This document shows, one piece after another, positions 16,401 through 61,399 of a stretch of 64,000 nucleotides of DNA. The stretch is from Schmidtea polychroa (lineage: Eukaryota). The number at the start of each line of letters is the position of its first letter. Position 1 is the stretch's first letter. The notes beneath the pieces are model-generated. The model was not told where the DNA came from. It did not search any database and saw only the letters and a program-made list of their open reading frames with translations. The position numbers were made by a program, and so were the translations under genes. Location: positions 32,366,001 through 32,430,000 of the forward strand of contig CM097885.1 of NCBI GenBank assembly GCA_044892525.1. Direction: 5' to 3'.

Positions 16401-16540
16401 TATTATTAATAAGTAAGACGACTTTTTCAAATTCTATTTTTTATCAAATTAATAACATATTAAAACAAAGTTTTTAAATATGTTATTATTAATATAAATA
16501 TTAATTTAATATTTATATTGATTTAATTGGTTTGACTACA
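16376..16540 (-). repeat. Shared middle LTR (165 bp)
   Basis: PPT on one side and PBS on the other; matches the 5' LTR at the two sites that distinguish it from the 3' LTR. Confidence 0.93.
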
Positions 16541-20168: not shown

Positions 20169-20308
20169 TATTATTAATAAGTAAGACGACTTTTTCAAAT
20201 TCTATTTTTTATCAAATTAATAACATATTAAAACAAAGTTTTTAAATATGTTATTATTAATATAAATATTAATTTAATATTTATATTGATTTAATTGGTT
20301 TGACTACA
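20144..20308 (-). repeat. 5' LTR (165 bp)
   Basis: TGTAGTC...ACAACA on the minus strand, followed by the PBS. Confidence 0.93.
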
Positions 20309-29169: not shown

Positions 29170-30644
29170 AGATTTATTATTTTTTAAAATTATTTTTTGA
29201 ATACATATGTTGGTTTTTAGATACGTCATGAAATATAGGTAAATATTAATTACTCTCCTCAACCGACTCCGTCATTTCGCATATCGAATTAGGTATTCCT
29301 ATTTTTACGCCTTTGAGTCAAATTGACTAATAAAATAATTTAACAATTAATCGCTTTAAGCAAATGAAACTTATGGCTTACGTAAGGGAAGTGCTTACCA
29401 GAATTCTAAAGAAGCGCATGTTTGAAGATTTATGATCAATGTCGTTAATTTTTAGTTAGCTAGTGTAAAAAAGTGCCCTACTAATCCAGCTATTTCATCA
29501 TTCCGTTTGATAAATCGTGTGAACAGATCTTTTATATAGTTTTATAAAATCAGTTTTTGACAACAGAAATTAGATCCACCAAGGTAATTAAAATATTTAC
29601 TTGAATAAGATATTTCAATTGATATCAATTTGTATCTAATTACTTATGACAATATGGAAAAAATTCAGAAAAATTGTCTTTTGCTAAAAACACTTAACAA
29701 AAAAAGGGAAGACCTATCAGATAATGAATCAGATGTACCTGATATGGAATTATGAGATAACGAAAGTGTAATAGAGGAGGATATCAATAGCACTGAAATT
29801 TCGAGTAGTGAAGAAGGGGATATCCTGGCAAAAAAAGAGTGAAAATTATTTCTGATTTTGAAACCAAAAGTGAAGATGAAGATTTTCGCTTTAAAATTCT
29901 CAGCAAAACAATTTCTCGGATTATTTCTGATTTCGAAACTAAAAATTAATTAGATGATATTGATATAACTCCCAATGAAGAAATTTCTACAGTAAAAGCT
30001 GCTGACGAGACTTTATGGAAAACATTGAATTTATCCCGACCGAAGAAAGAAAACTTATCATCAGAACAATGTTTTTATAGTGATGAAATGGGACATAGAA
30101 CTTTAAAGGCTTCTTAAGTGAAGTTTTAATTAAAACAAAAGGGAAAATGCATAAAAATAAAATAAAAATCACTTTATTTAAACAAAAAATAAAGAATTAA
30201 CATTTGGAAAAAAAGATTTTAAAATTTTTAGGAAGGGGTAGGAGTAACGACAAGTGATGAGTATAAACCAAGCCAAATATCAGTGATATACTATTACGTA
30301 ATATTTAAATATTATTTATGTAAAACGAATTACTGTAATACGGAAAATGATTATACACAAATGTAAAATCAATCAAAGCTGTTTCCCAATTACCACTCAA
30401 ATAAATTTATTTTTGAAATTGTATTTTAAAATTACTAGCATTATTAACAGGATAAATAAGAGGACAGTTATTATTATGTAAAATCATATAAAACTGGTTT
30501 TTTTTCATAATATATATTTCATCAATTTGTTTTCAGATATCTAGCTAGAAGTTTCATAACCATGCCATTTAACATAGTATTGTTTATATTTTTTGGTTGA
30601 CTTAGTTTTTAAAATATTTTGAATTCTGAAGATTGTGAGCGATG

Positions 30645-30860
30645 CAATGACTTGTAGTTCTGCTCGTATAATTTTCCATTGACTTGATCGTTTCCTTTGA
30701 TCTGTAATAAAGAACATGGCCGGAGTTTGATTAGTATGAATTTTCGATATTAATGAAAAACGTTATCACCCAATTGTTATCAAAATTCTTGATGAATGGA
30801 GTGGCACTGGTTTTACTCATTCTAACATGGTCTCCTACTTTATATCTCGGCTTTTTTGTT
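30645..30860 (-). pseudogene. Maverick/Polinton retroviral-like integrase, C-terminal fragment
   Basis: Minus-strand PRYKVGDHVRMSKTSATPFIKNFDNNW...TPAMFFITD...VNGKLYEQ(E)LQ matches the KxGDxVRIS...NWS..GxFYExELQ tail of Maverick integrases; frameshifted. Confidence 0.65.
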
Positions 30861-31008
30861 TTTAATTTATCTTGTTGTGATATCTAAGTATCAATATTAT
30901 TTGTTGAATAAATATCAGTTGGTCGTGAAAAATTGTAACTGTAAATTATCGGGATTTGCACTGGGTATCACAAAGGTTGCAATGTTTATATGATTAATAT
31001 TATTTTAA

Positions 31009-32059: not shown

Positions 32060-34657
32060 GGCTCTTATTTATTCGCTATGTATTTTTTTACTAAACGCTA
32101 TGTATTTTATTAGTGCCTTTATGTATTTTTTTCTAAGTAAATATTTATAAAATGCTAAGTATTATATTAATTATATAAGTAAAAAAATAGAATTCATTAG
32201 GTATTTAATTATTTTATTATAGGTAATATGTTTAATTTTTATAAGTAAAAAAATACAAAAACTAAGTAAAACAATGAAAAATTCATAAGAATAAACAAAA
32301 AGTGACACAATAAAAAAATCCATAAAAATAAAAAGACTATATTTCACAAAGACTATTATAAAAATATTTGAAATTATTGTTTTAATAAGGCTTTTTAGCT
32401 TTAGTTGGTCTTCCTCTTGGTAGTTTACTTCCAATAGAAGTATTCTTAGCTACTGCCGGTACTTTGCAATATTTAAGTCTGATTGAAATGCCGACAACAT
32501 GCTTGCAAATAAATTTTTTAAAAAATGCTGGACTATTGCACTGACCGTCGGCCCAATTGGCTTTATCGTTTGGTAAATTAATGCGCCAGACAGTAAAATC
32601 TCGCTTCGTAAATTGATCGAATGTTGTCCAGCGCATTTTTTCAACTTTGTCAATGTCTTCTTGAGTTATAGTTGCGTCACTAGCTGAAACATAGTAGTTT
32701 GTTGACTCTTCTTGGGGCACCGGAAGAATTGCTTTGCTTTTTTTAGCCCATTGATAAGACTGTGTCCATAATGCTGTGTCGATTGATTGTTTTGTAATAA
32801 ACTCCTTCAGACTTCGAGGATATGCTAGTGACCACTTTTTAACAATATCTAAAGCTTGTTTGCTAAATCGAGATAATGGCGTGCGCTCTCTAATAGTTTC
32901 TTCGTCTTTAAGAACTCGATTATTTGACTCTAGATTATTGTTAGTACTTGGCGTGAAGGGCATGTATTCTTCATACCAAGTATTGTGTGTCGTAAGCCAC
33001 ATCATATTCATATAGTCTAAAATCTCAGTCGCTTTTTTTTGTCTCCATTTTTTAACAAATAGAGAACTTGTTTTTTCAAAAATGACTTGGCTTTGTGACA
33101 ATTGAAGTTGATCTGCATCTTCAATTAATTCGTTTTGATCTTCTTTAGGCACTAAAGACTCGATTTTTTTGACACAATTTCTACGCATATGTGCCCAACA
33201 CATCACAATTTCATTTTTATTAAAAACTTGTGAATAAGCTATACGTATAGCGTTAGAAGCATCAGAAATCAATACACGAGGATTGAATAATGATGCATTT
33301 ATTTTTTTCAAGCCAATATTGATACTTGAAAAAATAAAGTTAAAATCAGTAGTTTTTTCATTGGTACATATACCTAGGCCAAAAGAATGAAAATGCCTAT
33401 CTAAATCGGTTGTACCAATGATTAAAATTGGATAGCCCTGCCAAACCAGTTTTTAAGTTGCATCAGCATTTAAAATTGTTGATGGTAAGGCTAGCTTAAG
33501 TGATCTTATTGTACTTATAAAAAATCTAAATTTAGAGCCGTGGTTTTCTTCATCTTCATCGCTTTCTTCATTACTCTCTTCACACTCATATTCATCGGCA
33601 TAAGTTATTTTATAATTGACTACAAAGGCTTCATCTTCTAACTCTGGTATAGAAGATGATGATTGAAGCCAATTTTCAAGCTCACTTAAACTTATTACTG
33701 GTAAACTTCATTTCTAATCTTGTTTAATTGATTTATTAATTGTATAGTAGTAGGAACAGGCTTTATACCTCGTTCATGAAAGATTTCTAACATTCTCTTA
33801 TGTTTTATTTTAAGCTTAAACAACTCTTTAATTAGTTCTTTAGCTTTGTTAGATATTGCAGATTTAGGCATGTTTTCTTCATGCTTATGCTCAGCTTCTG
33901 CCCTAAAAAGAATAACTTCATCTGATCTTGAGTCGTAGAGTAAATGTAATGCAGAATTTAAATTTAACTTGATTGCATCGATAGTAAACTTTTTTACCAT
34001 CTTCAGTTTTGTTGGAATAAGAGTAACTCCATATCTTCTCTTCTTTAATTGCATTTTTTGCTTCTTCAACATTTTTAAATACTTTTTCATGAGTCCAAAC
34101 TTTGGACACTTTTTTGGCTCGTGGTTTCTTTAAACTTGTAACTTCAACATCAGACTCAAGATCAGATTGATAATCTTCAACTTCTGCAAAATTATTAGAC
34201 ATTATAATTTCAGTATTTGTTTTAATTTTGTTTATAATAAATAAATATTTGGGCTTATAAATATTCAGAAACTTGGATAATAAATTAAATCAGATCACAT
34301 GAAAAAAAGACTTAAACAAAATGATTAGAGTTCTAAGACTTTACGTAGAAAAACATACCGCTTTATTGAAAATTTGTAATAATTGTCAAAAAAAAATAAG
34401 ATCTAAGAACATCTTACAAAAAATTAAGATTTATTGATGGATTTTATTAATTGACATATCGTTTTTTTTATTTTACTTATAACTTGTTTTCTTGACTTGG
34501 CATTTATTTATTTTACATAGTTTTTAATTAATAACTTAGCGAATGTATTAAATATCTAGAATTAATTAATTAACATAGAAGTGTTTTACTCTACTGATAC
34601 TGTGTATTTATCTACATAGAAAGTGTTTATAAAATACATAGCGAATAAATAGTTCTC
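32060..34657 (-). mobile_element. Mutator-like (MULE) DNA transposon inserted in a (TAA)n tract
   Basis: TIR core TATTTATTCGCTATGTATTTT at both ends with terminal G/C; TAATAATAA 9-bp flanks. Confidence 0.85.
32382..34202 (-). pseudogene. MULE transposase (MULE DDE, SWIM-like zinc finger, AT-hook), disrupted
   Basis: DAT*KLVWQGYPILIIGTTDLDRHFHSFG, ISDASNAI, CWAH, TNNNLESNN, CNSPAFFKKFICKH and RGRP motifs; frameshifts near 33960 and 33695 and a stop near 33455. Confidence 0.88.
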
Positions 34658-34737
<80 letters not shown>

Positions 34738-35444
34738 TTAATTAATTTAAACAAAATTCACGTATTTGTAATTTCCATTAAAAATAAAATTAGCTTTTAG
34801 TTTACAAAATAAAATTTATTAATAATAGATAATTTTATTTAAAATTTCTGTAATATAATACTTTTTTGAAAAGTACAAATCCATTATATATCATATATAT
34901 AAATTTAAATATTTTTAAATATTTTTTAATCCTAGTAATTAGTTGAATAAGGAAAAAAATTAAGAAAAAATATATTTTAATTGAATTCTTGAATCAATAT
35001 TTATAAATAAACAAAGAAGTTTTTTAAAAATAAATGTTATGTTAGTTGAAATATTAATTCAAGTATACATAATTTCTTATGCTCAATACTGAAACTTCAC
35101 AAGTTAGAGGTTCCACTCTATGGTTTTACCTTTGGAAAATATATATCTCAACATCACCAATTAACATTATCAGTAGCATGTTCCACGCATATCTGAAAAC
35201 TCAATAAAATACCAAACAATTAATTTCTATGGGATTTTTTCCAAATGCTTACAAGATTCCAAAAATATTGACATTATTTCTCATTGTTAGGAGAGGGTCT
35301 TTGTTCTAGATAGCTCACGTGGGGTACAGACGAACGAGACTAGATTTTCTAAAACGATCTTCATATTCGTTATTTTGAACTCGATCATGCTTATTTCTCG
35401 CTGCATTCGGTCTGACAGGGCAATGTTTGCAAATATGCGCCTTT

Positions 35445-35826
35445 AGTAGATGGATGGGGCAACGCTAAAACAGAGCACCGCTGGAACAAAGACATACCCC
35501 ACCTCTCGGGCGAAAAGTTTTTTTATAAAAAAATAATTTTTTGTAGAACAAAGACAATGGCTCGTTCAATGACTCATCAAAAAAACAGGGCACCGCTGGA
35601 ACAAAGACAATGACTCATAGTTAAATATTGATATTTCCAAAAATAATGTCTTTGTTCCAAGGTGCCCTACTTTTGGTCATGCATCAAGTTAGTCTTTCCA
35701 TCATCTGAATTTATTAGACGATAGCTCATTTTAAGGCCCAGTGCAAGTTCTATCTACTGATATATATTTACTATTTTTATCATTATTACTTGTAAAGATA
35801 TTAACACCCGCGCGGAAGATGGTATT
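35445..35826 (+). repeat. Maverick left TIR
   Basis: Reverse complement of 46670-46991 (e.g. CCCGCGCGGAAGATGGTAT / ATACCATCTTCCGCGCGGG). Confidence 0.9.
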
Positions 35827-35838
35827 TTCAATATTATT

Positions 35839-38800
35839 TGTAAGGAGTTAGTAAACCTCTATATAAAATTCTTATGGTTAAATGGTAGAAGTAAGATCAG
35901 TTGGTAGAAATAATTATTTCTGTTAAATTTTTATATTTAAATTCTATATTAAATTATATCATATTATATTAAATTATATTAAATTAAATCAATTAAATGT
36001 ATGACCATTAATTACATTAATATTAATAATTATCACGCCTCGGTGTTTAAATACGCTAGTAAACGGCACAATTTTAAAGTTGTTATAAAAATAAATGCTT
36101 GAAGAAGATTTGAATTTAATTGCGTCTAACATGGCGACCACGACCACGGATTTATTGATAAGCAGACTATTACCTGAGAAATTTTACAAAGGCGATGATC
36201 TAGAAAGTTTTATCAAGGATTGTCAAAGGTTTTTGGCGCGACAAAAACAACAATTAGGATGCAAGTAATATTAACTACAACATTACTTGACAGATCGCTA
36301 ATGGAAGATTATGAAGCAGCCGAAGGAAAAACTATGGAAGAAAAACTTCGATGTGCATTTTCGAAACCGACATCATTAATGGATGATCTAAAAGAAGCTT
36401 TGAGTTATGAACAAGGATCAGATTCAGCTGAAACTTTTATAGAGAAAATTAAAAAGATGACAAAGAAATTAATAGCGCACAAATGGGATTAAGTAGAAAT
36501 AGTAAAAATGCCTGCTTACAAATTGTGTAAGAGATCGAGAAGTTAAAAAAGAGATCAAGATGAAAGATTTGAAAACATCAGAAATAAAAGCGACAATAAA
36601 GAAATTAGAAAAGGTAAACAAAATTATGGGCCATATTAATGTTGTGAAGACTTCACCGGTTGTTCAAAACTACAGAAGTTACAGAGATGTTGCTCAAAGA
36701 GGAATGGTAAACGGAAATAATAATTTCAAGCAGCGAAACGTCAGTAACCGACAATTGGAATGCTGGACATGCAAGAAAACTGGTCATGTTAGTCGAGAAT
36801 GCCAAATGAAAAAGAAAATGACGTGTTTTGCATGTGGAGTTGTACGGCGAGAATGTTCAACGATTCAATGCCAGAGATGACTGCCATACAAATTTGGAAA
36901 AAAGGAAATTTCAAATTAATTCAAACATGAGAAACAATAATTATTATGCCCATCAAACCACAAGCTATCAACAAAAGATCAACAATCCAGGAAGAACAAT
37001 TGCAGCAATTGAAGCTAATGATGAGACGATGCCACTTGAGTATTCAGATGATGCAGAAGACAAATATGAGGATATTTAGCACCCAAAAGTACATGCTTCG
37101 ACACGGGAGTCAATGATCGGAGCAATATACTAGGTAATTTTGATATTGATATAAATATTGGTCATAATAATTTTAATAATGTAAATAATCCTTATATATA
37201 TATATATATAGTAATGTAGAACCTTTATGTAATAAAATTTGTAATTTTAAAAAGTTTCCTTTAAATAATTTTAAATGTTATAGTTATTTTAATGCTAATC
37301 GATCTTTAATAAATAATAATAATAATCCTAAGAATCAAGAAGAGTATAATGAAATTAAAGAAACAGAATATAATAATAAAATTAGAGAGAAGTGAAATTG
37401 GGTGGATTAATGAAATATCAGAGGAGTAAAATATTTTCACTAAAGATGAATGGAAACGACCGATACTGAGTTATGACAAAATGCAAGGTAGACCGAGTAC
37501 AACTCTTGAAATTCAGGGCTATAGAATAAAATGCTTACTAGATACAGGAGCAAGAGTAATTTTAATGGCAGAAGCAGTTGTGGACAAATTAGTGAATGTG
37601 AAAATCATAAAAACTGATGAGATGTTAAGATGTGCAAATGATAGTAAATTAGAGACAATCGGAAAAATAAATATTGATGTTAGAATTGGTAATATGGAAA
37701 GGAAAATAACATTTATAATAGTTAAAAATATTGTTCCAGATATAATAGGCGAGTGGAATTGCAGAAAGAGTTTGGAACTGAATTAAACTACATCAAGCAA
37801 AATGAATTAGGATATAATGAATTTGTGTGTGAAATAGAAGCTAGATTTGGGGAAAAGATTACAGATAACGAGAGATGTCAAAAAGCAATAGAAATTCTAA
37901 GATTAAACGAAAATAAAAGACTGTTAGAGATTGCTAAAAACAATAAGTGTTTTTATGGCTAATAACTGGGATATCGGATGTACTGATTTAATTGCACATA
38001 AAATCATCACAAAAGAAGGGTCAATTATGATAAAACCCAGAAGACAACCCATCAATTTAGAGGAGAAAATAAATGCTGCTATAAAAATTTAGAAAATAAT
38101 GATATCATAAGAAGATGTAATTCACCTTGGAATACGCCGTTAGTATGCGTGTGGAAAAAAGACAAAAAAGATATCAGACTTTGTTTAGATTTTAGACAGT
38201 TAATAAGATTACTGAAAGACAGGCTTTTCCTATGCCGAATGTAGAAGAAATTCTAGATACATTACATGGATCTAAGTACTTTAGTTCTATAGACCTTGGG
38301 AACGCTTATTATCAAGTGAAATTGGACATAGAATCGCAAGAAAAGACAGCATTTTCTACTAAAGAAGGGCAATTTTGTTTTAATAGAATGCCTTTTGGCA
38401 TTGCGGAGGCACCGGGTACATTCCAAGAATTAATGACAAAAATATTGAAAGATCTATGGAAAGAAGGAGTTATGGTGTATTTAGACGATATTTTAATTTT
38501 TACAAGAACAATTGAAGAACATTACAATGTGTTTGGAAAGTTCTAGAGAAAAAAGGGAAGCTAAATTGAGAATCAACCCAGAAAAATGTCAGTTATAAAG
38601 TGCAAAGTAAAGTTTTTAGGGCACATTATTAACAGTCAGGGGATTCGGACAGATCAAAGTAAAATTGAGGCTATTAAATCATTTCAGAGGCCTAAGTGTA
38701 TAAAGAATTTAAGAAGCTTTTTAGGTATATGTAACTATTATCGGAGATTTATTAAGGAATATGCAACAAAATCAAGAGCTCTAGAAAGCATATGTGGAAG

Positions 38801-40756
38801 CAATAGTGAAAAAATAATCTGGACTGAGGAATGTGAGAAAGCTTTCGAAGAAATGAAAATGGCGTTGACTACAGCGCCAATTCTCGTATTTCCAGATTTC
38901 AAGAAAGAATTCATATTAGATACAGACGCAAGCTTTGATACAATTGGAGCTGTATTATCACAAAGAGATGAAATGGGGCATGAACACGTTATTGCATATG
39001 GATCCCATGCAATGAGTAGCCATGAAAGAGGATATTGTATAACACGAAAAGAGCTTTTGGCTATATATTATATCTGTCGCCATTTCAACCATTATTTATA
39101 CGGTAAACGGTTTGTTTTGCGCACTGATCATAAAGCAATAACTTTTATGTTAACGACAAAGAAGCCGATAACAGCACAGTTCCAAACGTGGATAAATTAC
39201 TTGAGCAGTTTAGACATAAAAATGGAGTTCAGAAAAGGTACGGCGCATACGAATGCAGATATGCTGTCTAGAAACACATGCGGCAAATGTGTACAATGTT
39301 TGATGGACCATGATAACCCCAAATCAGGGCGATTAAAAACTAGATTGTTAACATTGATGACCGAAAATAATGGAAATGAATGGCAAAGAGATAATGCAGA
39401 AATACAAGATATAAAAGATCAAATAAATGAAAGGAAAAATAATAAATATATGTTAAAAGGAAATATTATCTATACCAATCAAAACAAAATATGGATACCA
39501 GAAACAAAAAGACGAGAAATGATTAAGGAAACACATTTATTATTATGCCACGCAGGAGTAGAAAAAGTTATGAAATATATTAGGAACAATTTTGATATGG
39601 AAGATTTGCTAAATGAAGTAAAAGAGACTATTTCAATATGTGAAGCATGTCAGAAAAACAAAGTTTTAACTACAGAGTCAAAAGAAAAAAAGTAATTCAA
39701 GCTTCAGAACCTATGGAGAAAATATACATGGATATTTGCGGTCCATTAAGAGAAACCTTTAGAGGAGAAAATATATTTGTGCAATAATCGATCGTTACAG
39801 TAAATAAATATCTCTAACTCCTATTAGAAAGCAAGATGAAAATACAATAAAGGCAGTTCTGTTAAATAATTGGATATTGAAATTTGGAGCCCCGAAGGAA
39901 TTACATGTTGATTGTGGAAAGAATTTCGAAGCAAATAGTATTAAAGAACTAGCAAGGGCAGCAGGAATTGAGTTGATATTTTCGAGTCCGTATCATCATA
40001 ATACTAATGGTGTAATTGAAGGACAATTTCGTACTATAAGAAACTACATTAACGCGTCACTCAGAGAAGGAGTTAAAAAAAGCTGGGCAGAATTAATACC
40101 TGATATAGAATACGTTTTAAATGCGACAGATCAAAAAACTGCTGGAGTGAGTCCAGCAGAAATTATATTTGGAAGAAAGATTAATAGATCGCAATGGCAT
40201 AGTAATAATGAAGGGGATAGAAAAGAAATCATGCGGAAATTAGAGGTTAAAAGACAGCAAGCGAAAGAAATTGGCACAACTAGGAAATTAGAAGTGGGGG
40301 ACAAAGTATTGGTGAAACAAGAAATTAGAAACAAAGAACACGAGAGATATGAAAGACCATACACAGTAATTAAACAAAATCATGAAAGAAGTTACTTATT
40401 AACAGACGAAAACGGGAGGAAAATGACGAGGAATATAGAAAGGTTAAAGCATTTTAAAGAAGGGGGATGTAAGGAGTTAGTAAACCTCTATATAAAATTC
40501 TTATGGTTAAATGGTAGAAGTGAGATCAGTTAGTAGAAATGATTATTTCTGTTAAATTTTTATATTTAAATTCTATATTAAATTATATCATATTATATTA
40601 AATTATATTAAATTAAATCAATTAAATGTATGACCATTAATTACATCAATATTAATATTTATCACCTTTGTTTAATTACGCTAGTAAACGGCACAATTTT
40701 GAAGTTGTTATAAAAATAAATGCTTGAAGGTGATTTGAATTTAATTGCGTCTAACA
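35839..40756 (+). mobile_element. Full-length but decayed Ty3/Gypsy element nested in the Maverick
   Basis: LTRs 35839-36131 and 40468-40756 (TG...CA); PBS TGGCGACCAC (tRNA-Arg-like); PPT AAAGAAGGGGGA; TSD TTATT/TTAAT. Confidence 0.93.
36131..40533 (+). pseudogene. Disrupted gag-pol (CCHC gag, protease, RT, RNase H, integrase)
   Basis: CWTCKKTGHVSREC, LLDTGA, YLDD, TDAS and SPYHHNTNGVIE motifs in successive ORF fragments; many frameshifts and stops. Confidence 0.92.
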
Positions 40757-40787
40757 TTAATATTATTATTTTCAAAGTTTTAATCAA

Positions 40788-40849
<62 letters not shown>

Positions 40850-40906
40850 ATCACAATCATTTTGTAGTAGTATAAATAAAACAATATATTTTAAATTACT
40901 GTAGAA

Positions 40907-41414
40907 ATGTCGCAATCTAATTTTTTCGACAACTTGCTAAATGAGCTCGTCAATACAAGTATCACGGAAAGTCTCAGTTGCCTAATTAATCGGACTGAAG
41001 AAATCATCGAGGGGAATCATATTGATTACCAGAACGTGCTGGATATGGTGTCTGGAGACGAAAATGTTTTACTTCAATAGAATCTTCAATTGTCTATTCG
41101 ATGACGAAATGAAGTGGACCCGAATAATTGTAGGGTTCACTTATATGAAAATTATAATTGAAAAGATTTCATGTGACTCAGAACGCTATTATCAGTGGTC
41201 TCAAGATGTAAGATTTTTAAAATCTATATATTTTAATAATATTCATTTCTAGATAATCAAGTCCAAGTTTACTCCATGGATAGAAGCCAATGGCGGATGG
41301 GGTGTATTAAATCAACTAGCCCGCAATGCTAAAGAAACTGACGAAATCAAAAGAAAAATGAAAAACTATTTAAAACTTGCAACTGGAGTTGTTATAATGT
41401 ATATTTTTTTGTAG
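40907..41414 (+). pseudogene. Bcl-2-family protein (Maverick cargo); one intron and one frameshift
   Basis: BH1-like FNRIFNCLFDDEMKWTRIIVGFTY; GT-AG intron 41208-41252; BH2 PWIEANGGW; C-terminal hydrophobic tail LATGVVIMYIFL; 1-nt frameshift near 41062; TATAAATA at 40871 and AATAAA at 41422. Confidence 0.8.
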
Positions 41415-41472
41415 ATATATGAATAAAAATTAATGTTATTGTTTTTAATAGTATATTTAAATGAAAATAATT

Positions 41473-41830
41473 CAATTTAAAAATTTATTAACACATTCGC
41501 AATCATCATCTTCACATTTCATTACATTTTCGACGACATGATCTACACATTCGTTGTACTCATTCGTAATATTTTCCGTATCTTTAGGTTCATCTATAGG
41601 TTCATAGATTTCCTCATCAATTTTTTTGGTATCGGTTTCTTGAGTATCAGTTTCTTCCTGATCATCAAATCCTGAATCTTGAATCTCAACTACCCAGCCG
41701 ATATTTAATGCATTTGCAACTGATAATATATCCTCAATTTTTACACCAGCTATTTCTGCAAAAATTGATTACAAATTCTAAATAATAAATAATTCGGAAA
41801 TTAATTAATCATGTTAACCTTTCTGCAGTC
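41473..41830 (-). CDS. Acidic orphan protein exon (Maverick cargo); 5' structure uncertain
   Basis: Open minus frame EIAGVKIEDILSVANALNIGWVVEIQDSGFDDQEETD...CEDDDCECVNKFLN* preceded by a TTTTTGCAG acceptor; missed by the ORF track. Confidence 0.45.
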
Positions 41831-41967
41831 ATTTTTATCACTTTAAAACTATATTATAAGTTTGTTTATAGATTTCTTTGTTAAATTTGAATGTCATTTG
41901 CATTGATGTTGCAATTTCTTTGTTAATAAAGAGAAAAACAAATATGACTAATACATTAAATACAACA

Positions 41968-42380
41968 TTAAAATAGTTGTGAAAGTCTAGCAGACATAAT
42001 TTTCCAAATTGGAGAATACACATCATTATTATCAACTTTATATCCCTGGATTGCAATTGTTATATACCAATTTTCATTTTCTTTGAAACTGATTTCATCA
42101 AAAGCATCGTAAAATCTTGCATATCTGTTGTTGAACCATGCATGTTGATTACATGCTAGATTTGAATCTATCCGTTTGAAAACATCATCAATAGTTTTAA
42201 CATCTATCATTGAAAGAGTGCCGGATAAGAATTGAAATTCAGTTGGAATTAGCTTTACCGGTGCAACCAATTTCATATTGATTTCTTCTTTCAAAAAAAA
42301 ATTTTGTAGTTGTGGAACATTTGAACCGGTTGTACAAGTTCTTCTTTAGGGTTTTCGATTCTTGAAATTTTCTTGGTCAT
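41968..42380 (-). CDS. Maverick cargo protein, possibly an OB-fold ssDNA-binding protein; 1-nt frameshift in a T9 run
   Basis: ATG at 42380 joins ORF 41968-42294 if one T is added at 42293-42301; C-terminal ITIAIQGYKV...YSPIWKI beta pattern; TATAAAAA ~33 nt upstream. Confidence 0.5.
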
Positions 42381-42694
42381 AGTGAATAATGATTAAAATG
42401 AAATGTTACAGGGTTTTTATACCTTTGACTTATGCATATCAACCAATGAGATTATAGCATGTCTTTGTTTAAATTGCATTCAAAATGCATTGATGTTGCA
42501 TTAATGTGTCATATTATTAATGTTTTATTATTACTATTCTCAAATCATTATTATTATTACCATTATTAATATTACTATTTATATTACTATTATTATTATT
42601 ACTATTCTCAAATTATTACTATTTATATTACTATTATTTGAAATATATAAAAGAAAAAACAATAAAAACACAATAAAAACATTTATTAATACAA

Positions 42695-43104
42695 TCACCC
42701 GAGATCTACAACTCGAGAATATTGAAACCTTCTGAGAGTTTTCACTAATTCCAACTCAACATATCGCCGATAACGATCGGCACAGCAAGAGCATTCGATG
42801 ATGCATTGGTATTCCGGTTCCATATCTTTCTGTCGTCTATCTATCGTAATGTCCCACAGGAATTGATGGAACACTTCTAATATCCTGATTTGGGTTGCAT
42901 AAAATACGAGATCTGGAATAATCTCATGTTCACGGTCATTGAGAATTTCATTTAGTTGGGGGTAAAAATACTTGAGTCGATTTAACATGACTTCGGAATA
43001 TTTATCTGAAAATAAAGACTATAAAAATGAAAATAATAAATTTAAAATTTACCATTATTATCGATTTCTTTCATCAAACGAGCGGCGCTTGAATTTTTAT
43101 ACAT
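42695..43104 (-). CDS. Two-exon orphan protein (Maverick cargo) with a Cys cluster
   Basis: Exon 1 MYKNSSAARLMKEIDNN splices over a GT-AG intron (43006-43052) in frame into DKYSEVMLNRLKYF...QCIIECSCCADRY. Confidence 0.6.
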
Positions 43105-43174
43105 TTTTTAAAATGACATCTTAACAAAAAACAGTTTGTTTAAAACAAACATAAACCAATTAGAAATTAACCAA

Positions 43175-43612
43175 TTAAAAATTGACCAATGAAAATATCT
43201 CATCCCTAACATTGTTAACAAATTCTCTATCCTCCAAATTTCTCAACCCCAGCATGACAACCTTTCCACTAGCAAACACATTGATACATATAGGGTTATA
43301 TTTTAATAGACCTAGTGCCGGAAACAATTCCGGTTCAAACATACAATCACATTTTCTCGACATGTTTTATAGATTGATACTATGTCCCATATCCATAGTA
43401 ACGGTAATTGATTGGATTTTAATATTATTTATTCTATATTGTAATTTATTAATATCCAAGGGTTTTTTACATCCCATGATTCTACATTTACCTGTCTTGA
43501 AAAATATTATCGGATATTTTTCGCTTCTAACGATAATTTGCTGGGGTTTTCCTGGTGGGAACCTCATATTCGATACATCAAAATTTCCTCGATAATTTAT
43601 ATTTGTTAACAT
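43175..43612 (-). pseudogene. Divergent TATA-binding protein (TBP)-like gene (Maverick cargo) with one in-frame stop
   Basis: ORFs 43367-43612 and 43175-43363 are in one frame; IIFFKTGKCRIMGCK, KIQSITVTMDMGHSINL, FEPELFPAL and INVFASGKVVMLG align with TBP ALIFSSGKMVCTGAK, KIQNMVGSCDVKFPIRL, YEPELFPGL and LLIFVSGKVVLTG. Confidence 0.88.
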
Positions 43613-43617
43613 TATTA

Positions 43618-45319
43618 CCGTAATTATCCGAATATAAGACGCATCATTAAAAATTGACTGAATTCAAGAAAATATAAGTAACCCAAATATAAGACGCATG
43701 TATAACTATTACATTAAATTTATATTACATTAAATTTATATTACATTAAATTTATTTTTTGTTTAAAATTAAAATTTCAGTTACTTAAATTTAAATTTTT
43801 ATTTCCCTATAATGTCTTCTAAACGCTGCAGTTATACGACAGGTTTCAAATTGAAGGTAATTGAAGCAGCCGAACGTATCGGAAATAGAGGAGCATCTAG
43901 AGAATATGGACTCAGTGAAGCTAATGTAAGGCATTGGAGAAATAATAAAAATACTTTAAAAGAGTGCAGATCCTCTACAAAGGCCCCTGGCAGAGGGAGG
44001 AAATTCTTTTTTCCTGACGTGGAGAAAAAATTAGTTGAATATGTTCATAAAAGGCGATTTTCAGGTTCCTCAATATCCACTGTAGAAGTTAGATTGAAGG
44101 CTTTAGAGTTAGTCAAGGAGATGTATCCTGGTTCAATATTTAAAGCCTCGGCGCGCTGGTGCCAGCTCTTCATGAAAAGGAATGATATTTCTATAAGAAG
44201 AAGGACTTCAATTGCACAGCGACTGCCGGATGATGTAGAAAATAAGCTGCTCGACTATCAGAAATATATAATAAATTTAAGGAAAAGGCATGAATATCCA
44301 ATTAGTTGCATAGCAAATGGGGATCAGACTCCACTAAGTTTTGATATACCTTCATTTCAGACATTGGATTTCAAAGGAGTCAAGTCCGTACCTATTAAAA
44401 CTACAGGCAACGAAAAGAATCGGTTTACAGTTATGTTGGGAGCTTATGGTGACGGCAAGAAGATGCCACCTTATGTAATTTTTAAAAGAAAATCTTTACC
44501 AAAGAACATTCATTGGCCAGCTGGTATGATTGTTAAAGCACAAGAAAATGGATGGATGAATGAGGAGTTGACTAAGGATTGGATTAAGACTATTTGGTGT
44601 AATGATAGAACAGATGAATTTCGAAATTCAAGGAGGTTACTGGTATTAGACGCATTTAGATGCCACCGTATGCCATGCGTAAAGGAAATTTTGGCAAAAA
44701 ACAAAACAGATCTTGTGATTATTCCTGGAGGGATGACCGGGCAACTCCAAGTTATGGATGTAGTTTGGAATAGGCCATTTAAACAAGAGATGCGAAAGAG
44801 ATGGAATGAGTGGTTTTTTTCTGGAGCTCCATCATTTACTGCTTCTGGAAACAGACGAAAGGTTGATTTAGAAACTATTTGCAAATGGATTCAATTATCA
44901 TGGGATGCAGTTAGTGAGGCAATTATTATCAAATGATTCAAGAAATGTTGTTTGAGTAATGCTATGGATGGATCAGAAGACGATGTTATTTGGCAGGACG
45001 ATATATCTGATGTAGGGAATGAGGATGATGATATGGAAAATGAATTAATGTTTGAAGAAGTGGACGAGTCCATTGAGATTGAGAATTTGATAAAAAGTGA
45101 AGATGAAAATAATGATCTCTGTAATGAAAAAAACATTCTGTAACTAATAAAGAAATATTTTGTATTAATTTATGCTTTATTTCCCTTGCCCATACCGGGT
45201 TTTCAGAAAATTTTCTGAGTAGGAAAAAATATTTCCTGTTATACCCATGTATAAGACGCACCACGATTATCATCCCCAAAAGTGATGAAAAAAAGCGTCT
45301 TATATTCGGATAATTACGG
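43618..45319 (+). mobile_element. pogo/Tigger-family DNA transposon nested in the Maverick
   Basis: Perfect 25-bp TIR CCGTAATTATCCGAATATAAGACGC; TA on both sides. Confidence 0.95.
43812..45143 (+). pseudogene. pogo transposase (Brinker-like HTH, CENP-B HTH, DDE_1) with one premature stop
   Basis: ANGDQTP, LVLDAF and LQVMDV catalytic motifs; TGA at 44934-44936 precedes in-frame FKKCCLSNAMDGSEDD. Confidence 0.92.
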
Positions 45320-45407
45320 TAAATCATTTATGAAAATTACTCTTTATATACAATTTTAGTACCAGTTCATTAAATATAAACAAATACATACTTTTATAAA
45401 ATTTAAA

Positions 45408-46026
45408 ATGGAATTAAGAAATGATGCAGTATACCAAATCGTTGTTCCGAGTGGTAGTGGAAAAAATATTATTTGTTTGCACATTACTAAAATCAAATTT
45501 ATTCCAAACAAAATTCAACAGGATTTATTGGCATCAAGTTGCTGATGAAGAACGTGGATTGACGCAATCAAGTTTCTGTAAATTAAAAAACATGAAAATA
45601 GTAAAGGGATTTGATAAAAACTGGTCCAGTCGGTTAAAGAACGGCGATGTCATCATTATCGATGATTTGTACCAAGAAGCTAATAAAGAAAAAGATTTTA
45701 ATAATTTATTCACAAAAATCAGTAGACATGTCGGTGTAACAGTTATTTTCATAACACAAAATCTATTTCATCAAGGTGGAGCACATCGAACACGTAATTT
45801 AAATGTACAATATTTAGTTATTTTCAAGAACCCTAGAGATGCAACTGTGATTGATTTTCTTACACGTCAAGCATACCCTAACAATCGTAATTTTCTTATC
45901 GGCGCATTTCAAGATACTACAAAAATACCTCATGGATATATATTTTTTGATTTCACGCAACAATGTCCCGATGATTTGCGAGTAAAAACGGATATTTTCA
46001 ACCCAAAAGGTGCCATAGTTTATTAA
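45408..46026 (+). pseudogene. Maverick/Polinton A32-like DNA packaging ATPase, frameshifted after Walker A
   Basis: MELRNDAVYQIVVPSGSGK (Walker A), VIIIDD (Walker B), SRH, ITQNLF and IFKNPRD motifs; 1-nt shift in the A-run at ~45462. Confidence 0.9.
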
Positions 46027-46187
46027 CATAGTTGAAAACCTCTATGAATAATAATGTTTTTAAAAGCAAGGGTGAAAAATATTAGGAAATTAAGAAAAAG
46101 TATTAGAAAGAGTATTAAGTTCCAAAGGTTCCACCAACAACTAGTTATACACCATCTAAAAAGCTTGTTTCTGAAAATTTCTCTGCT

Positions 46188-46650
46188 ATGAATCTCATTT
46201 CAATGCCCATTAATTCATCCAGACAATCAAGCCAGCAAATTCATGTTCAATCTCCAGATTCCTATTTTTTTAAATGGTGACTGGGAAGTTGCACTGCAAG
46301 ATTTTACATTCGTGTACAACACATTCCCATTTTATAGTCAATGTAAAATTGATTTCAAAAGCAATATTGTGAAAACATGTAGCGGTATCTTTGTTATCAG
46401 TAATTTTGATAAAACATATCATATTCCAAATCAAATATTAGATCCGCATTGCTATATGTTTTACAAGGATGGATTAAATATCAGTTGTGATTTAAACTAT
46501 TTACAATAACATTCGAAACTATTGAAGATGCCAAACGAATGGGCTGCAATAAGTTGAAAAATATTATTACGGAAACCGAGTATTTATTACGTTTTGATCT
46601 ATTTGAAGCAAACATTGTAGTGAAAGAAGAAATCAAAATATTTGTGTATA
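46188..46650 (+). pseudogene. Maverick minor capsid (penton)-like N-terminal fragment
   Basis: HPDNQASKFMFNLQIPIFLNGDWEVALQDF matches the NxxSxFxxxL..I.L.G.WEVAL penton pattern; truncated against the right TIR. Confidence 0.7.
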
Positions 46651-46669
46651 TTTATTTATATTATTATAT

Positions 46670-46991
46670 TATACCATCTTCCGCGCGGGCGTTAATATCT
46701 TCACAAGTCATAATGATAAAAATAGTAATTATATATCAGTAGATAGATCTTGCGCTGGGCCTTAAAATGAGCTATCGTTTAATAAATTCGGATGATCGGA
46801 AAACTAACTTGTTGCATGACCACAAGTAGGGCACCGCTGGAACAAAGACATTATTTTTGGAAATATCAATATTTAACTATGAGTCTTTGTTCCAGCGGTG
46901 CCCTTTTTTTTGATGAGTCATCGGATGACTCATTGCCTTTGTTCTAAAAGATTTTTATGTCTTTGTTCCAGCGGTGTCCCATTCATCTACT
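46670..46991 (-). repeat. Maverick right TIR
   Basis: Inverted copy of the left TIR ending CATCTACT. Confidence 0.9.
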
Positions 46992-47919
46992 GCTTTTGTC
47001 TCATGGTCCTTTTTGTATGTTATTGATGTTGTTTTATAAGCAAAATAGATTATAATTCAAATTCAGCATAATACCAAAAAATTTCACAAAGTATCCTTGG
47101 TATTTCACTTCTGATTACACATAGGTTTATCCTTTACGTTTTGGTTTATCGAGATAAAATAAAGTCTCATTTGTTCATTCTTTGCTGATTACTTCTGCCT
47201 TGTCAAGCTCTGAGTGAAAAACTGTCATTTTTTATATTTATCCATTCCAAAGATTGTTCAATTGTTTCCTCTGTGTTCTTGATTTTGGTGCGGATAGTCT
47301 CTGTTAAGTCTACGATTACATAATTGGTAAATATTTCCAATGCTCTATCCAAACATTGCATATTGTCAAAGCACATAAAAATTTGCATCTATATTATGAA
47401 ATAATCATTAATTATTTTAAATATTTCTATAATATAGATGTTATTATTCTGTAGTATTGTGTGCTTTGCAAAATATGTAAGTATTGCCATGTTCAAGTCA
47501 CATATGATAAATGGGTAAACTCTCAAAATCTCTATTAGTATGAAGTCTATTGAAAACAGAATGAACCGATTCATTGACATCTGATCTTTCTTTAATGCTT
47601 GTATTATTCTGATATTCTTGTTACGATTGGATCCACATTCATTGTTTGAATCTCCTATTTTAATTCCCACTGACCTTGGACATTTCTTTTTAGTTAAAGT
47701 TTTTGATGAAGACTAGTTAAATAATGTCAAATCATATTTTAAAGATTTTAAATGAAAGAGTGCATGAAAACTATTTTAATTTGCGTTAACAAGTTCTATC
47801 AATTCAGAATACAATGAACTCGATTTTTGATGAATAATTCAAAGTTTTGTTGCATGTTCCAGGATACAAATTGTGAATAATAGCGCTGTATTAATAATTG
47901 CGTTTGCACCAATAGGTGT

Positions 47920-55814: not shown

Positions 55815-58800
55815 CAGTAGCGTATCTAGGGCCGGGCAAGCGGGGCATTTGCCTCGGGCGCCACGATTTTAGGGGCGCCAAATTGATTTTTGAAACCTAA
55901 ACTTTATTTAAAGATTTTCGATTTTGAAATTTGACCAACATTAAAATAACGAATTTTGATTATTTGAAATATATAAACAAAGTTCACCATAAAATTTAAA
56001 TTTAATTTTAGTACTATTTAAATTAAATTTAAATTTTATGGTGAACTTTGTTTATATATTTCAAAGCCTTTCCAAAATACATGAAATTTGAGTTATATCC
56101 AGAACTCAATCGTAAGATTTATAGAATTATTTGTTAAGCTCAAAATTATTTGAAAAAACTTTCAAACTTTAGAATATCAAAGATGCCGAAACCGAAATTA
56201 AGTGGCGCACAAAATCGTAAAAAGGCCAGAATATTCCGAAATGAAGCTAAAAAGTCAAGTCAAATGTTGCAAAATTATTTAAAAAAGGAAAAAGTTGAAG
56301 AAAATGACCAGATAGAGGATATTAAAGAAGACAAACATATGCCGCAGTCAGATTATGAATTTTTTGATTTTGATGCCTCACAAAACAATGAAGAGTCGGA
56401 TTTTGATTATGAAATGACTGAATCCAACAATAAATCATGTCTTTCAACAATTTCAGAAAATATTCCGAATCTGCTTTTGTTCAATGATTTTGGATATTTG
56501 GAATTTCAAGAAGGTTTTCATTCATTCAGTCCAATAGTTTCACAAAAACTAAGAACTGAAGTCATTTTACGTGGCCCGAGTTTATTTCAAAATAATAAAG
56601 GAAGCTTTGCAGTGCATAATGGACGTTCAATTACATCATCATGGTTTAAGAAGAAGTTGGCAAACGGTATATATGTTAATCGATCTTGGTTAATTTATTC
56701 GCCTCATAAAGAAACACTTTTCTGCTTTTGTTGTTTGTTATTTTATAATGATTTTTGTAAAACTGCATTTTCTTCACCGGCTGGTTTTAGAGATTTTAAG
56801 CATTCAGAAAGAGTAAATGATCATGAAAATAATATTATACACCGTCAGAATTTTACAACATGGAAAGAAACTGAACGAAGATTGCCTCAAGGTGCTGGAA
56901 TCGATATGGAAGTTCAAGCTCAAATATTGTTGGAAAAAGATCGATGGAGAGAAATTTTAAAAAGATTTCTTTCATGCATAAAATTCTTAGCATTTCATAA
57001 TTTAGCATTACGTGGTTATAATGAAAATTTGTTGAATACAGAAGGCAATCCAGGTAATTTTCTGGGTCTCTTACAATTGATTGCGCAATATGATCCACTT
57101 TTGGCAAGTCACATGGAACATTCTCGTTTACATCCAGGAACAACATCTTATTTATCACCAGGCATACAAAATGAGTTTATTCACCTTTTAGCTTCAACAG
57201 TTCAAAATGTTTTGATTGAAAATATTAAAAAAAGCAAATACTTTGGCATGATATTTGATTCTACTCCAGATTTACAACATCGTGAACAATTTTCAGAAGT
57301 TATTCGTCACGTTGAAATAGATTTTGATAAAAAAACAGTGGAAATTAAGGAATCATTTCTGGGATTTATTGAGCTAGCTGAAAAAGATGCCGAAGCTCTT
57401 AAAAATACTATACTCAAATTATTACAAACTGATGGATTACAACTCTCGGACTGTCGATCGCAATGTTATGATAATGCGGCAGTTATGGCTGGTCATGTTT
57501 CTGGATTGCAACAAAGAATTACCAAATTGAACCCTCGCGCAGTGTTTATTAACTGCGATAATCATAGTTTAAATCTTGCAGGATTACATTCTGTTCAAAC
57601 TAATCCCATAATGCTAACTTTTTTTGGTGTAATTGAACAAATTTATTTATTTTTTTCAAGATCAACCAATCGTTGGCAAAATTTAACCGATGTCATTCCT
57701 TTGACTGTAAACCGTGAATCAACAACACGATGGAGTGCACGAGCAGAAGCTGTAAAAGCAATTTTTATTGGAATCGATAATCTTGTGAAATTAATTGAAG
57801 ATCTTTCTGATGATTTCAATCAAACATCTGACACAAGAAGCGAATCATACAATTTATTGCAAAATATATTGAATTTTAATTTTCTGGTTTTGATAAATTG
57901 TTGGCATCACGTTCTCGAGAAAATTGATCGTGTACAAAAACGAATGCAAGATCCAAAAATTAATTTTAAAGATGCCTCCGATGATTTACAAGGATTAAGC
58001 ATACATATGCAGCAATTTCTTGAAGATCTATGCATTCAATCAATTGAAGCAGGTAAAAAAAAGTGTTTTGAATAAAGAAAAGAGTGCGACGTATAAAAAT
58101 TAGATTAGGTGAAAAAATGACTGATTCTGGTTTGACTGCTGAACAAGAGTTAGATCGTGTGTTGAAATGCTCAGTTGATAGATTAATTCAAGAATTAAAA
58201 ACTCGATTTACTCGCCTTAATTCATTGAACGAAAATTTTGGATATTTCCTTGACACTGAAAATTTTCTAAATTGCCATGATCCTGCTAAATTAAAAGAAA
58301 AATGTTCAAATTTGGGAAAATTTTACAATTCAGATATTGATGAAAACGAACTATGCAATGAAGTTGCTGACTGTAAAATGCTTCTTAATGCTCGAAAAGA
58401 TGAAATTCCAAAATCACCTATAGATCTTTTAAAATTTTTAATATCTTATGGTGAAGATGTTTTCCCAAATTTAAGAATTTCATTGCAAATTCTTTTGACA
58501 ATTGGTATTTCTGTTTCAACATGCGAGCGTTCCTTTAGCAAATTAAAATTAATTTTGTCATATCTTCGAGCAACAATGAGTGAAGAACGTTTAAATAATT
58601 TGGCATTATTAAGTATTGAGACAAACACTGTGAACAAAATTAACTTTGATGATGTCATTGACAAGTTCGCAAGTGTTAAAGCACGAAAAATTTGTTTGTA
58701 AATTATTACAATAAATAAAGTTTAAAATTAACTTGTTGCAAAATTAAATTAATTTTTTTTAAAACTGCTGCAAATCAATTTTAAAGAGTGAAAATTTTTG

Positions 58801-60875: not shown

Positions 60876-60939
<64 letters not shown>

Positions 60940-61085
60940 ATTATTATTATTAGTATTAATCTATATACTCCGAGTTTATCCGACAAAATATTTTGTCCCC
61001 CTATGGGTAATGCTCAAAAGGGTACTGCTCACGCTCAACAACTCACAAGGGTATTATTAAACAAATCAACAAAACATACATTTAT

Positions 61086-61337
61086 TTAAACAATAAAATA
61101 ATGTAAAATTAACAAAGGTAAACTAAATATTGATGTACTAGTATTCGCGACAATATTGTTTGAAATTGGTAACGTTGAATTGATTTTCAGATATTCTATT
61201 GATCCTTTGATTGTTTGAAGTTCTCTTAATAATAAATCGATCTTTTTTAACAAATAATCATGCTTCTTATCAATAATTTTCATATTCTTTTTATTTTCAA
61301 CAATAGAGTTATTGAAAACTTCAATATGATCAATCAA
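61086..61337 (-). CDS. Small hypothetical coiled-coil-like protein fragment (Maverick)
   Basis: 83-aa ORF with heptad-like LLKKIDLLLRELQTIKGSIEYLK between the TIR and pPolB. Confidence 0.3.
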   Translation of the reverse strand: MIDHIEVFNNSIVENKKNMKIIDKKHDYLLKKIDLLLRELQTIKGSIEYLKINSTLPISNNIVANTSTSIFSLPLLILHYFIV

Positions 61338-61399
61338 TTTAATTTTTATATTTTGTATATATGCAAATGATAGTTCATAACTAGTAGGTAGTTAGTAGC

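Follow-up and report, generated by a model that had tools for sequence, protein, structure and literature searches.

A conserved minimal TBP and an oriented ATAAAC box before virion genes in animal-type Mavericks: a candidate early-to-late switch

Beta- and gammaherpesviruses encode mimics of TBP, namely BcRF1 of Epstein-Barr virus (EBV), ORF24 of Kaposi's sarcoma-associated herpesvirus (KSHV) and UL87 of human cytomegalovirus (HCMV), which act on TATT late promoters. These mimics are large multi-domain proteins; they belong to a complex of six proteins and make direct contact with polymerase II through it. The TBPs of nucleocytoviruses and mirusviruses serve virus-encoded RNA polymerases. A different arrangement is described here for a Maverick/Polinton element lying in a 64,000-nucleotide stretch of Schmidtea polychroa DNA (assembly GCA_044892525.1, contig CM097885.1, positions 32,366,001 to 32,430,000; this whole stretch is called the window, and coordinates refer to it). 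The family to which this element belongs encodes a stand-alone, 145-aa TBP saddle that keeps the TFIIB stirrup, and an oriented ATAAAC box stands before its virion genes. It shares with the herpesvirus mimics the pairing of a virus-encoded TBP fold with a variant TATA word before virion genes, but the likeness seen between the proteins is one of fold (macaque gammaherpesvirus BcRF1 is a weak structural match, E = 0.028). The fold is likewise shared with nucleocytovirus and mirusvirus TBP homologues (19 BFVD matches at E ≤ 0.001, many of them from nucleocytoviruses, at 7–20% identity), whereas the element has no polymerase gene of the RNA type.

In gene content the family resembles the Alpha-type adintoviruses (Starrett et al. 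2021, PMC8502044), with which it shares terminal inverted repeats (TIRs), a protein-primed DNA polymerase B (pPolB), an rve integrase, an FtsK/A32 ATPase, an adenain protease and small basic core proteins. Bcl2 and IAP homologues are reported for adintoviruses and SSDBP is labelled on the animal adintovirus maps (PMC8502044), so that these accessory genes are known; PLA2 occurs in some of the related metagenome elements studied here. The Bcl-2 cargo is of modest interest because it has already been reported for this element class. In the portions of PMC8502044 available, the TBP label appears once, in the legend of Fig. 5 (MELD viruses, in the section on non-animal datasets); the animal maps of Fig. 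S2 carry no TBP label in their text and the passages contain no promoter motif, whereas the element described here has both. It also differs in that three accessory genes, and apparently the integrase, have short introns. The TBP family may be hidden among the unnamed 'Adintoc' groups. VLTF3-bearing coral polintoviruses (PMC11131425) likewise combine a Polinton with a putative late transcription factor, but VLTF3 is an unrelated protein family, and the available text of that paper contains no TBP, TATA, SSB or Bcl. Burro, a group of giant Gypsy elements of planarians, has a BCL2-like domain (PMC6431247, available in part) and is thus another high-copy mobile element with Bcl-2-like cargo; its domain lies inside a retroviral polyprotein, whereas that of the Maverick is a spliced stand-alone gene. 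The terms TBP, TATA and Bcl have no occurrence in the main text of PMC11161782, PMC10748475, PMC11131425 or PMC8097293. The initial annotation knew of no description of a TBP together with an apoptosis regulator in Mavericks. Bcl2, like SSDBP, has in fact been labelled before; a TBP in animal-type Mavericks and the ATAAAC promoter are not described in the openly readable literature searched.

The distinctive feature is a conserved minimal TBP together with an oriented box before virion genes in animal-type Mavericks, most likely serving as an early-to-late switch. Within this genome's family, TATAAAC stands before 16/16 ATPase, 14/15 pX and 10/11 orfA starts, and before the single pVII and the single major capsid protein (MCP) start examined, while TAAAC precedes 11/11 integrase and 5/5 penton starts. 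TATAAAC is found before 0/16 TBP, 0/16 SSB and 1/21 Bcl-2 starts, where ordinary TATA boxes mostly stand; a TATAAAG-type box lies upstream of TBP in 14 of the 16 family loci. Four protease starts have no TATAAAC-type box, and the family background is 2.6%. Metagenome elements repeat this pattern, with ATAAAC before 77 of 88 virion-module genes versus 4 of 34 TBP genes (background 6.4%) and in all 20 ATPase upstream regions; the ATPases that carry the motif form 17 clusters at 90% identity and two groups at 50% identity. ATAAAC is the top-ranked 6-mer, occurs 77 times in sense and once in antisense orientation, and peaks 31–44 nt before the ATG. Its sixth base is selective (C in 77 of the 88, versus A in 14 and T in 15), and GTAAAC is found in 5/88. 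In many cases it has been retained although it falls within the last coding part of the gene before it. ATAAAC is accordingly a putative late promoter, to which the element's TBP would bind.

The TBP-like protein itself is recognised with confidence. The gene of this copy matches Pfam TBP at E = 2e-16 with its stop codon read as X, and a natural 145-aa copy exceeds the PF00352 cut-off (55–60 bits, in two stretches). A model of the natural copy (pLDDT, the predicted local distance difference test, of 95.5) forms a two-lobed saddle. All 44 Foldseek PDB matches listed at E ≤ 0.001 are TBPs, and the model aligns with cellular TBP structures at TM-scores of 0.66–0.77 (about 0.7) and 20–25% identity, which bears out the assignment made in the initial annotation. 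In addition to the saddle, the protein shares with cellular TBP the EPELF stirrup and three of four intercalating Phe, but it is about 35 residues shorter, lacks most of helices H1 and H2 of the first repeat, and forms a separate clade.

In TBP, paired Asn/Thr residues make minor-groove DNA contacts, and the C-terminal stirrup is the TFIIB-binding surface. Among 65 aligned rows, the stirrup residues E, P, E, L/I and F are kept in 64, 65, 64, 63 and 65, respectively. The second and fourth intercalating Phe are kept in 64 and 65, and three of the four Phe are near invariant. The DNA face has changed elsewhere: the second-repeat Asn is Ser in 63/65, the first-repeat Thr is Met in 65/65, and the second-repeat Thr is replaced by Leu. 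The span of helix H2 has a median of 22 residues versus 35, with three helical residues there in the model. Judged as a canonical TBP, the protein thus retains the stirrup residues and lacks the full set of four Phe with paired Asn/Thr, as well as helix H2.

Homologues are widespread. Of 116 candidates, 108 are TBP-like homologues at 37–98% identity, and at E ≤ 0.001 there are 683 cluster representatives, among which are cellular TBPs; no TBP relatives were found in the viral contig set. Eighty metagenome TBP loci were kept (81 confirmed of 168). An element ATPase is present in 24 of these 80, SSB in 21, integrase in 15 and penton in 11, while four are distant, intron-like matches that may be cellular. 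Near-complete Maverick gene sets with TBP close to the ATPase occur in four loci (L057, L063, L105 and L113). In a tree of 61 rows, rooted for drawing only and with the host TBP left out, 13 element-linked TBPs split from 6 canonical-like TBPs with branch support of 100/100. Given the distant element homologues and the fixed residue changes, the TBP-like gene is not recent host cargo; as read from sequence, it is an old element lineage with its TFIIB surface kept and its DNA face changed. TBP and SSB are both old and widespread element genes, and they seem to belong to the element's expression and replication machinery.

Other genes seen in TBP-bearing metagenome elements (L063, L105, L113, L078, L121) encode a ubiquitin-conjugating enzyme, a RING finger, PLA2, KilA-N, a C2H2 finger and a leucine-rich repeat (LRR) protein, and a further gene of 154–163 aa recurs in 18 TBP-bearing metagenome loci. 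The host genome also contains three apparently intronless TBP-family genes (C2:182.64 Mb, C2:132.29 Mb and C1:195.75 Mb) with scores between those of host TBP and element TBP, which may be host paralogues or TBPs of other elements.

The five genes that accompany the ATPase (Bcl-2-like, orfA, SSB-like, orfC and TBP-like; the cassette) belong to an element family. The searched host genome is that of an animal, AT-rich and 781 Mb in size. At least 93% of the cassette lies in one piece at 30 of the 40 places scored (the best 40 of 4,173 candidates), this copy included and the others at 79–88% identity. The five-gene order is the same in 9/9 other cassette loci examined, and TBP is head-to-head with the ATPase in 9/9 other ATPase loci. 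A terminus lies 0.2–1.4 kb upstream of Bcl-2 in 7/9 other cassette loci, making Bcl-2 the element's first gene. The cargo is thus found neither in this copy alone nor mostly outside Maverick ends, and the two TIRs are not those of separate insertions around host DNA. Candidate counts point to hundreds to thousands of family copies: 2,998 for TBP (best 150 scored), 2,401 for Bcl-2 exon 1 (best 150 scored, 143 of them stop-free, a set biased toward the best copies) and 4,772 for the putative MCP.

Downstream of the ATPase, other copies carry a basic pX-like gene (a 179-aa open reading frame), integrase and penton. A pVII-like gene follows, succeeded by the putative MCP of 407 aa and the adenain protease; the run from penton through pVII and MCP to protease was seen after the cassette copy at C2:12.93 Mb. 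Protease is followed by pPolB in 2/3 loci taken downstream of MCP. In the third, a Bcl-2 arm takes the place of pPolB, and 587 nt of this arm are 97% identical to the sequence that immediately follows pPolB. Of 16 long-frame pPolB matches, 8 have a Pfam Bcl-2 match on their own strand at a distance of 9.4–9.9 kb upstream, where 0.03 would be expected. The composite order, pieced together from copies, is TIR - Bcl2> <orfA <SSB <orfC <TBP / ATPase> pX> integrase> penton> pVII-like> MCP> protease> pPolB> - TIR. Every core gene is in this way linked to the cassette through other copies, and the synteny with ATPase, integrase, putative MCP and pPolB that the initial annotation asked about holds when read piecewise.

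Core-gene identities were examined in natural copies. The packaging ATPase matches Pox_A32 above cut-off (E = 4e-7, L036), the adenain-like protease matches Peptidase_C5 (E = 2e-6, L131), and the integrase matches rve (E = 3e-4 in L047; 1e-12 in the relative L057). The pPolB that follows protease in L132 and L134 is 62% identical to a pPolB with a Pfam DNA_pol_B_2 match (E = 4e-26); the L132 frame taken alone has Endonuclease_7 as its sole match. Conserved genes of 407 aa (putative MCP) and about 340 aa (putative penton) occupy the places where double and single jelly-roll capsid proteins are expected. In L043, L047, L049 and L050 a stretch rich in (ATT)n, differing in length between copies, breaks the integrase at a single point; it is probably an intron that a microsatellite has expanded.

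All five cassette genes are under purifying selection. The mean ratio of nonsynonymous to synonymous substitution rates (dN/dS), a comparison already proposed in the initial annotation, lies between 0.09 and 0.24 for every one of them: 0.24 for TBP, 0.11 and 0.24 for exons 1 and 2 of Bcl-2, 0.21 for SSB, 0.09 for orfC and 0.24 for orfA, with 0.17 for the ATPase. These values derive from 9–16 copies per gene from 21 loci, with two exact duplicates and same-place loci excluded and saturated pairs removed (15/55 for Bcl-2 exon 1, 38/91 for orfC). By variant class, dN/dS is 0.04–0.27 for variants shared between copies and 0.32–0.77 for singletons. Synonymous divergence (dS) is 0.6–1.3 in Bcl-2 and orfC versus 0.10–0.18 in neighbouring genes, and since it is high in these two only, elements that are close in their other genes have traded old alleles of both. 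This exchange between subfamilies is gene-sized at both places.

The remaining cassette products differ in how clearly they can be assigned. A model of a natural SSB-like copy (pLDDT 89.9) has as its top four of 48,161 chains in VIA-align DUF2815, African swine fever virus (ASFV) CP312R, Enc34 single-stranded DNA-binding protein (SSB) and T7 gp2.5 (Z 7.0–7.5, root-mean-square deviation 2.8–4.0, 100–126 residues aligned), with the next chain at Z 5.4; the top four Foldseek rows are Enc34 SSB (E = 0.06–0.19). The protein is an OB fold with a capping helix of the T7 gp2.5 type, as modelled, and single-stranded DNA binding is predicted; the putative SSB label thus gains structural backing. No usable match was found in the ESM Atlas. 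Word-seeded searches of a 5.8-billion protein set, confined to near lengths, gave one near-identical protein each for SSB and for Bcl-2 exon 1.

For the Bcl-2-like gene, this broken copy reaches 23.4 bits (E = 9e-5) against a PF00452 cut-off of 31.4, while dispersed sister copies with the same one-TAG read-through signature score 32–34.5 bits and pass it. Exon 2 has a BH2-like WI..NGGW and a hydrophobic C-terminal end, the top ESM Atlas matches are Bcl-2 clusters (0.91), and the best PDB sequence match, through a BH1-like segment, is BCL2A1. The assignment survives on these several modest signals, and by analogy the protein may be anti-apoptotic. Many Bcl-2 Pfam matches in the genome lie in open frames of 1,000–3,090 aa, as Burro would give. 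The orphans orfA and orfC have no protein-family match. In tblastn searches of the 80 metagenome loci, most of them short, Bcl-2, orfA and orfC found no match; all three were seen in this genome's family only, and the searches gave no relative of the Bcl-2 gene beyond the organism's own near-copy.

Taken together, the data favour, with a probability of about 0.6, a high-copy Alpha-type Maverick/Polinton family with a two-step, virus-like early-to-late programme. The early genes (Bcl-2-like, SSB and TBP-like), behind ordinary TATA boxes and in the case of Bcl-2 and SSB additionally behind CCAAT boxes, would be read by host polymerase II. SSB would then serve protein-primed strand-displacement replication, and the Bcl-2-like protein would delay host-cell death. 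The element TBP would bind the oriented (T/C)ATAAAC box before packaging, integrase and capsid genes, and its conserved stirrup would bring in TFIIB and polymerase II of the host. The helix on the convex surface, with which cellular TBP contacts its other partners, would play no part. The broader proposal, that a widespread Maverick clade switches from early to late through a minimal viral TBP, its own ATAAAC word and host TFIIB and polymerase II, is given slightly better than even odds.

A competing explanation, unlikely but deserving attention, is that the TBP-like protein is a decoy. It would shut off or modulate host transcription by sequestering TFIIB or by sitting on the host's TATA boxes, and the reader of ATAAAC would be the host's TBP, a paralogue of it or a different protein of the element. 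The stirrup is indeed the most conserved surface, the changes at the first Phe and at both Asn/Thr contacts could mean that DNA binding has been lost, TATAAAC is one base off a canonical TATA box, and the host genome holds several stronger TBP-family matches among the best 10 rows. However, the replaced DNA-face residues are near invariant (Ser and Met in 63 and 65 of the 65 rows), which fits a new specificity better than decay; moreover, C is favoured at the last position of the box and the TBP gene itself avoids it. It is also conceivable, if improbable, that ATAAACA is a host site of the Forkhead type for tissue-specific expression, and that the TBP-like protein is unrelated to it, acting for example at a replication origin in the TIR. 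An A does follow ATAAAC in 59/77 cases, but the strict orientation, the scarcity of GTAAAC, the 14 ATAAACG cases and the 31–44 nt peak fit a core promoter rather than an enhancer. That the five genes are host DNA caught between unrelated TIRs, or functionless passengers, has almost nothing left to recommend it. Four of the five are broken here and three have host-type introns, yet the shared target-site duplication, the order conserved in many copies and the low dN/dS speak against it, as do the TBP and SSB homologues in distant elements and the low identity of TBP to cellular structures; family-wide copies, synteny, metagenome homologues and selection together refute it.

Several points weigh against the proposed programme. 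ATAAAC lies anywhere between 6 and 98 nt before the first ATG, and part of the start codons used are guesses. The metagenome loci were picked by TBP and are related, so their counts are not independent. Mavericks lacking a TBP, sought by way of their ATPase to serve as a negative control, did not turn up, so the box may also occur in elements that have no TBP, with a host factor as its reader. The first intercalating Phe is variable, so DNA bending could be weak, and the N-terminal TBP alignment is imprecise. The SSB Z values stay below 8 and the Foldseek E values above 0.001. The Bcl-2 BH1 segment has no NWGR glycine, its PDB match has E = 0.48, Atlas recognition is low, and single exons as well as this copy fall below the Pfam cut-off. 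Neither of the two putative capsid proteins, MCP and penton, matches a profile or a PDB entry. Gene order was assembled piecewise from different copies, not from one stretch, and the eight Bcl-2–pPolB pairs are coordinates only and may belong to a sister subfamily.

It is a standing question whether the Mavericks of animals are genuine viruses that go through a regulated, productive cycle, and the case has so far rested on their having capsid genes at all. The pairing of a conserved TBP with a matching box offers a concrete and cheap test, involving one protein and one six-base word, and the box gives a rule for sorting early from late genes, orphans included, by which orfA sorts late. If the proposal is true, the family supplies a natural TBP whose specificity has changed and whose surface is reduced. 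Its single protein would then parallel the late-gene system of herpesviruses, and the sequences would be direct evidence for a timed virus cycle.

The copy in the window is ordinary as a decayed copy and interesting as a member of its family (Table 1). A 6-bp target-site duplication (TSD) is typical of Maverick/Polinton elements, and the matching TIRs and nearly identical TSDs support the single insertion that had been annotated. The TIRs are long with AGT-type ends, and the terminal AGTAGA compares with the end motif (AGT)2 given for Maverick/Polinton in the available part of PMC8097293. A genome search with the TIR gave 78 matches (best 40 of 2125 candidates scored).

Table 1. Features of the Maverick copy and of the elements nested in it (window coordinates)
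Feature	Position	Strand	Remarks
Left TSD, GCCTTT	35439..35444	.	GCTTTT at 46992-46997; 5/6 bases agree
Left TIR	35445..35837	+	Aligned to right TIR: 307 matches / 20 mismatches plus gaps
Nested Gypsy long terminal repeat (LTR) retrotransposon, broken	35839..40756	+	LTRs 279/289 identical
Bcl-2-like gene	40907..41414	+	Exons 40907-41207, 41253-41414; exon 1 frameshift near 41,050
Bcl-2-like intron, 45 nt	41208..41252	+	GT..AG kept in 11 copies, length 44-78 nt
orfA, acidic orphan	41472..41832	-	Two exons, 41-nt intron 41778-41818; frameshifted
orfA ATAAAC box	41864-41869	-	Upstream of orfA
SSB-like gene (T7 gp2.5 / Enc34 / ASFV CP312R-type OB fold)	41968..42380	-	Frameshift near 42,300
orfC, 120-aa orphan with Cys cluster	42695..43104	-	Two exons, 47-nt intron 43006-43052; open
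TBP-like gene, 145 codons	43175..43612	-	In-frame stop at 43367-43369
Nested pogo/Tc5-type transposon	43618..45319	+	28-nt TIRs 26/28, TA duplication, DDE_1 E 5e-27
Canonical-type TATA box of TBP gene	45342..45350	-	Separated from its gene by pogo
TATAAAC box before ATPase, putative late promoter	45375..45381	+	16/16 family ATPase loci
A32-type packaging ATPase	45408..46026	+	Pox_A32 E 8.5e-4; frameshift near 45,460
5' remnant of basic pX-like core-protein gene	46054..46201	+	Between ATPase and penton; deletion junction 46201/46204
Internal fragment of putative minor capsid (penton) gene	46204..46647	+	94.8% to copy L048
Right TIR	46663..46991	-	Pairs with left TIR; AGTAGA at both element ends
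Right TSD, GCTTTT	46992..46997	.	5/6 bases same as left copy

Both nested elements annotated initially are real. The Gypsy has Pfam RVT_1, RT_RNaseH and rve matches in broken frames, and its ends, checked for a TSD, show no clean one; the pogo has paired TIRs and a transposase match, and its insertion splits the TBP-like gene from its TATA box. In another copy (L035:1370-1503) the TA site that pogo occupies here, upstream of TBP, holds a different insert, of 132 nt with a pogo-like terminus at its end. With Gypsy and pogo removed, about 4.9 kb of Maverick remains, close to the 5 kb estimated before, and holds the five genes, the ATPase, the pX-like remnant and the penton fragment. Five cargo genes with three introns stand as described, the GT..AG ends being kept across copies (orfC in 8, orfA in 10; 17 loci scanned, some not reaching every gene), but the introns measure 41, 45 and 47 nt rather than up to 60. 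The ATPase was also rightly named; the penton label is given by position and homology only, with no Pfam, NCBIfam or PHROG match, the fragment being homologous to a metagenome-element gene between integrase and putative MCP.

Among the five cassette genes of this copy, only orfC has an intact reading frame. The 40 scored copies agree with the pX-like region up to 46201-46203 only and then diverge, and the deletion at this junction has removed the integrase; the putative major capsid, protease and pPolB genes are deleted as well. The copy is dead and internally deleted and cannot itself behave as a virus. Of the earlier suggestion of a virus-like element with its own TBP and apoptosis regulator, what holds is that these are element genes under selection; that they form a host-manipulation cassette peculiar to this lineage, or that this copy acts as a virus, does not.

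Contigs from four runs (three presumed RNA, one unlabelled) were aligned to a natural copy. Of 163 joints, the 15 listed include none over the predicted introns. In one run a single contig has a loose poly(T) end shortly after the ATPase stop, another shortly after that of Bcl-2 and a third within orfA, which hints only weakly at expression. Piwi knockdown is reported to derepress Polintons (PMC8532177).

Two other interpretations of the family's polymerase were considered and rejected. A 1,322-aa frame upstream of Bcl-2 in L040 is not the family pPolB, since the cassette element, which sits inside another element, terminates 230 nt upstream of Bcl-2. A two-segment Maverick, with a pPolB segment and a virion segment, had been prompted by the finding that none of 140 TBP, 102 MCP and 39 ATPase matches lies near 54 paired pPolB loci; the protease–pPolB loci and the eight Bcl-2–pPolB pairs argue against it.

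The 54 paired pPolB loci belong to a second, largely palindromic Maverick family, whose pPolB is 62% identical to that of the cassette family and whose copies are 97–98% alike with long open frames. Here 108 of 150 pPolB 5' matches form the 54 pairs, all divergent and none convergent, at a median distance of 5.9 kb. Two palindrome centres (L135, L136) are self-inverted over their full length (99.4% and 92.7%); they contain tandem repeats, and genes of the capsid module and of the cassette are absent from them. Such palindromes look like integrated fold-back replication products with two polymerase genes; they may also be an assembly artefact. At L040:4496 (C3:12.34-12.37 Mb) one palindromic pPolB element has a cassette element inserted at its middle. 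Three loci (L032, L042, L133) are arm-duplicated derivatives in which the Bcl-2 arm was copied inverted onto the other end, replacing pPolB, and several Bcl-2 matches form convergent pairs 3.6–21 kb apart.

The window holds further mobile DNA. One end of the second Maverick family lies at 60540-64000 (terminus at 60540, pPolB at 61400-64000, minus strand), and a piece of another Maverick, with the 3' part of integrase followed by the 5' part of penton, lies at 30353-30949 on the minus strand. Two facing Maverick-type termini 2.26 kb apart form a small non-autonomous element at 1003-3264. A tandem Gypsy array at 12606-20310 has a 3,768-nt period, two near-identical units and three shared LTR-like copies, with gag, RT and integrase frames exactly repeated. 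A Mutator-type transposase is encoded at 32382-34289 (minus) and a hAT transposase at 56138-58701 (plus).

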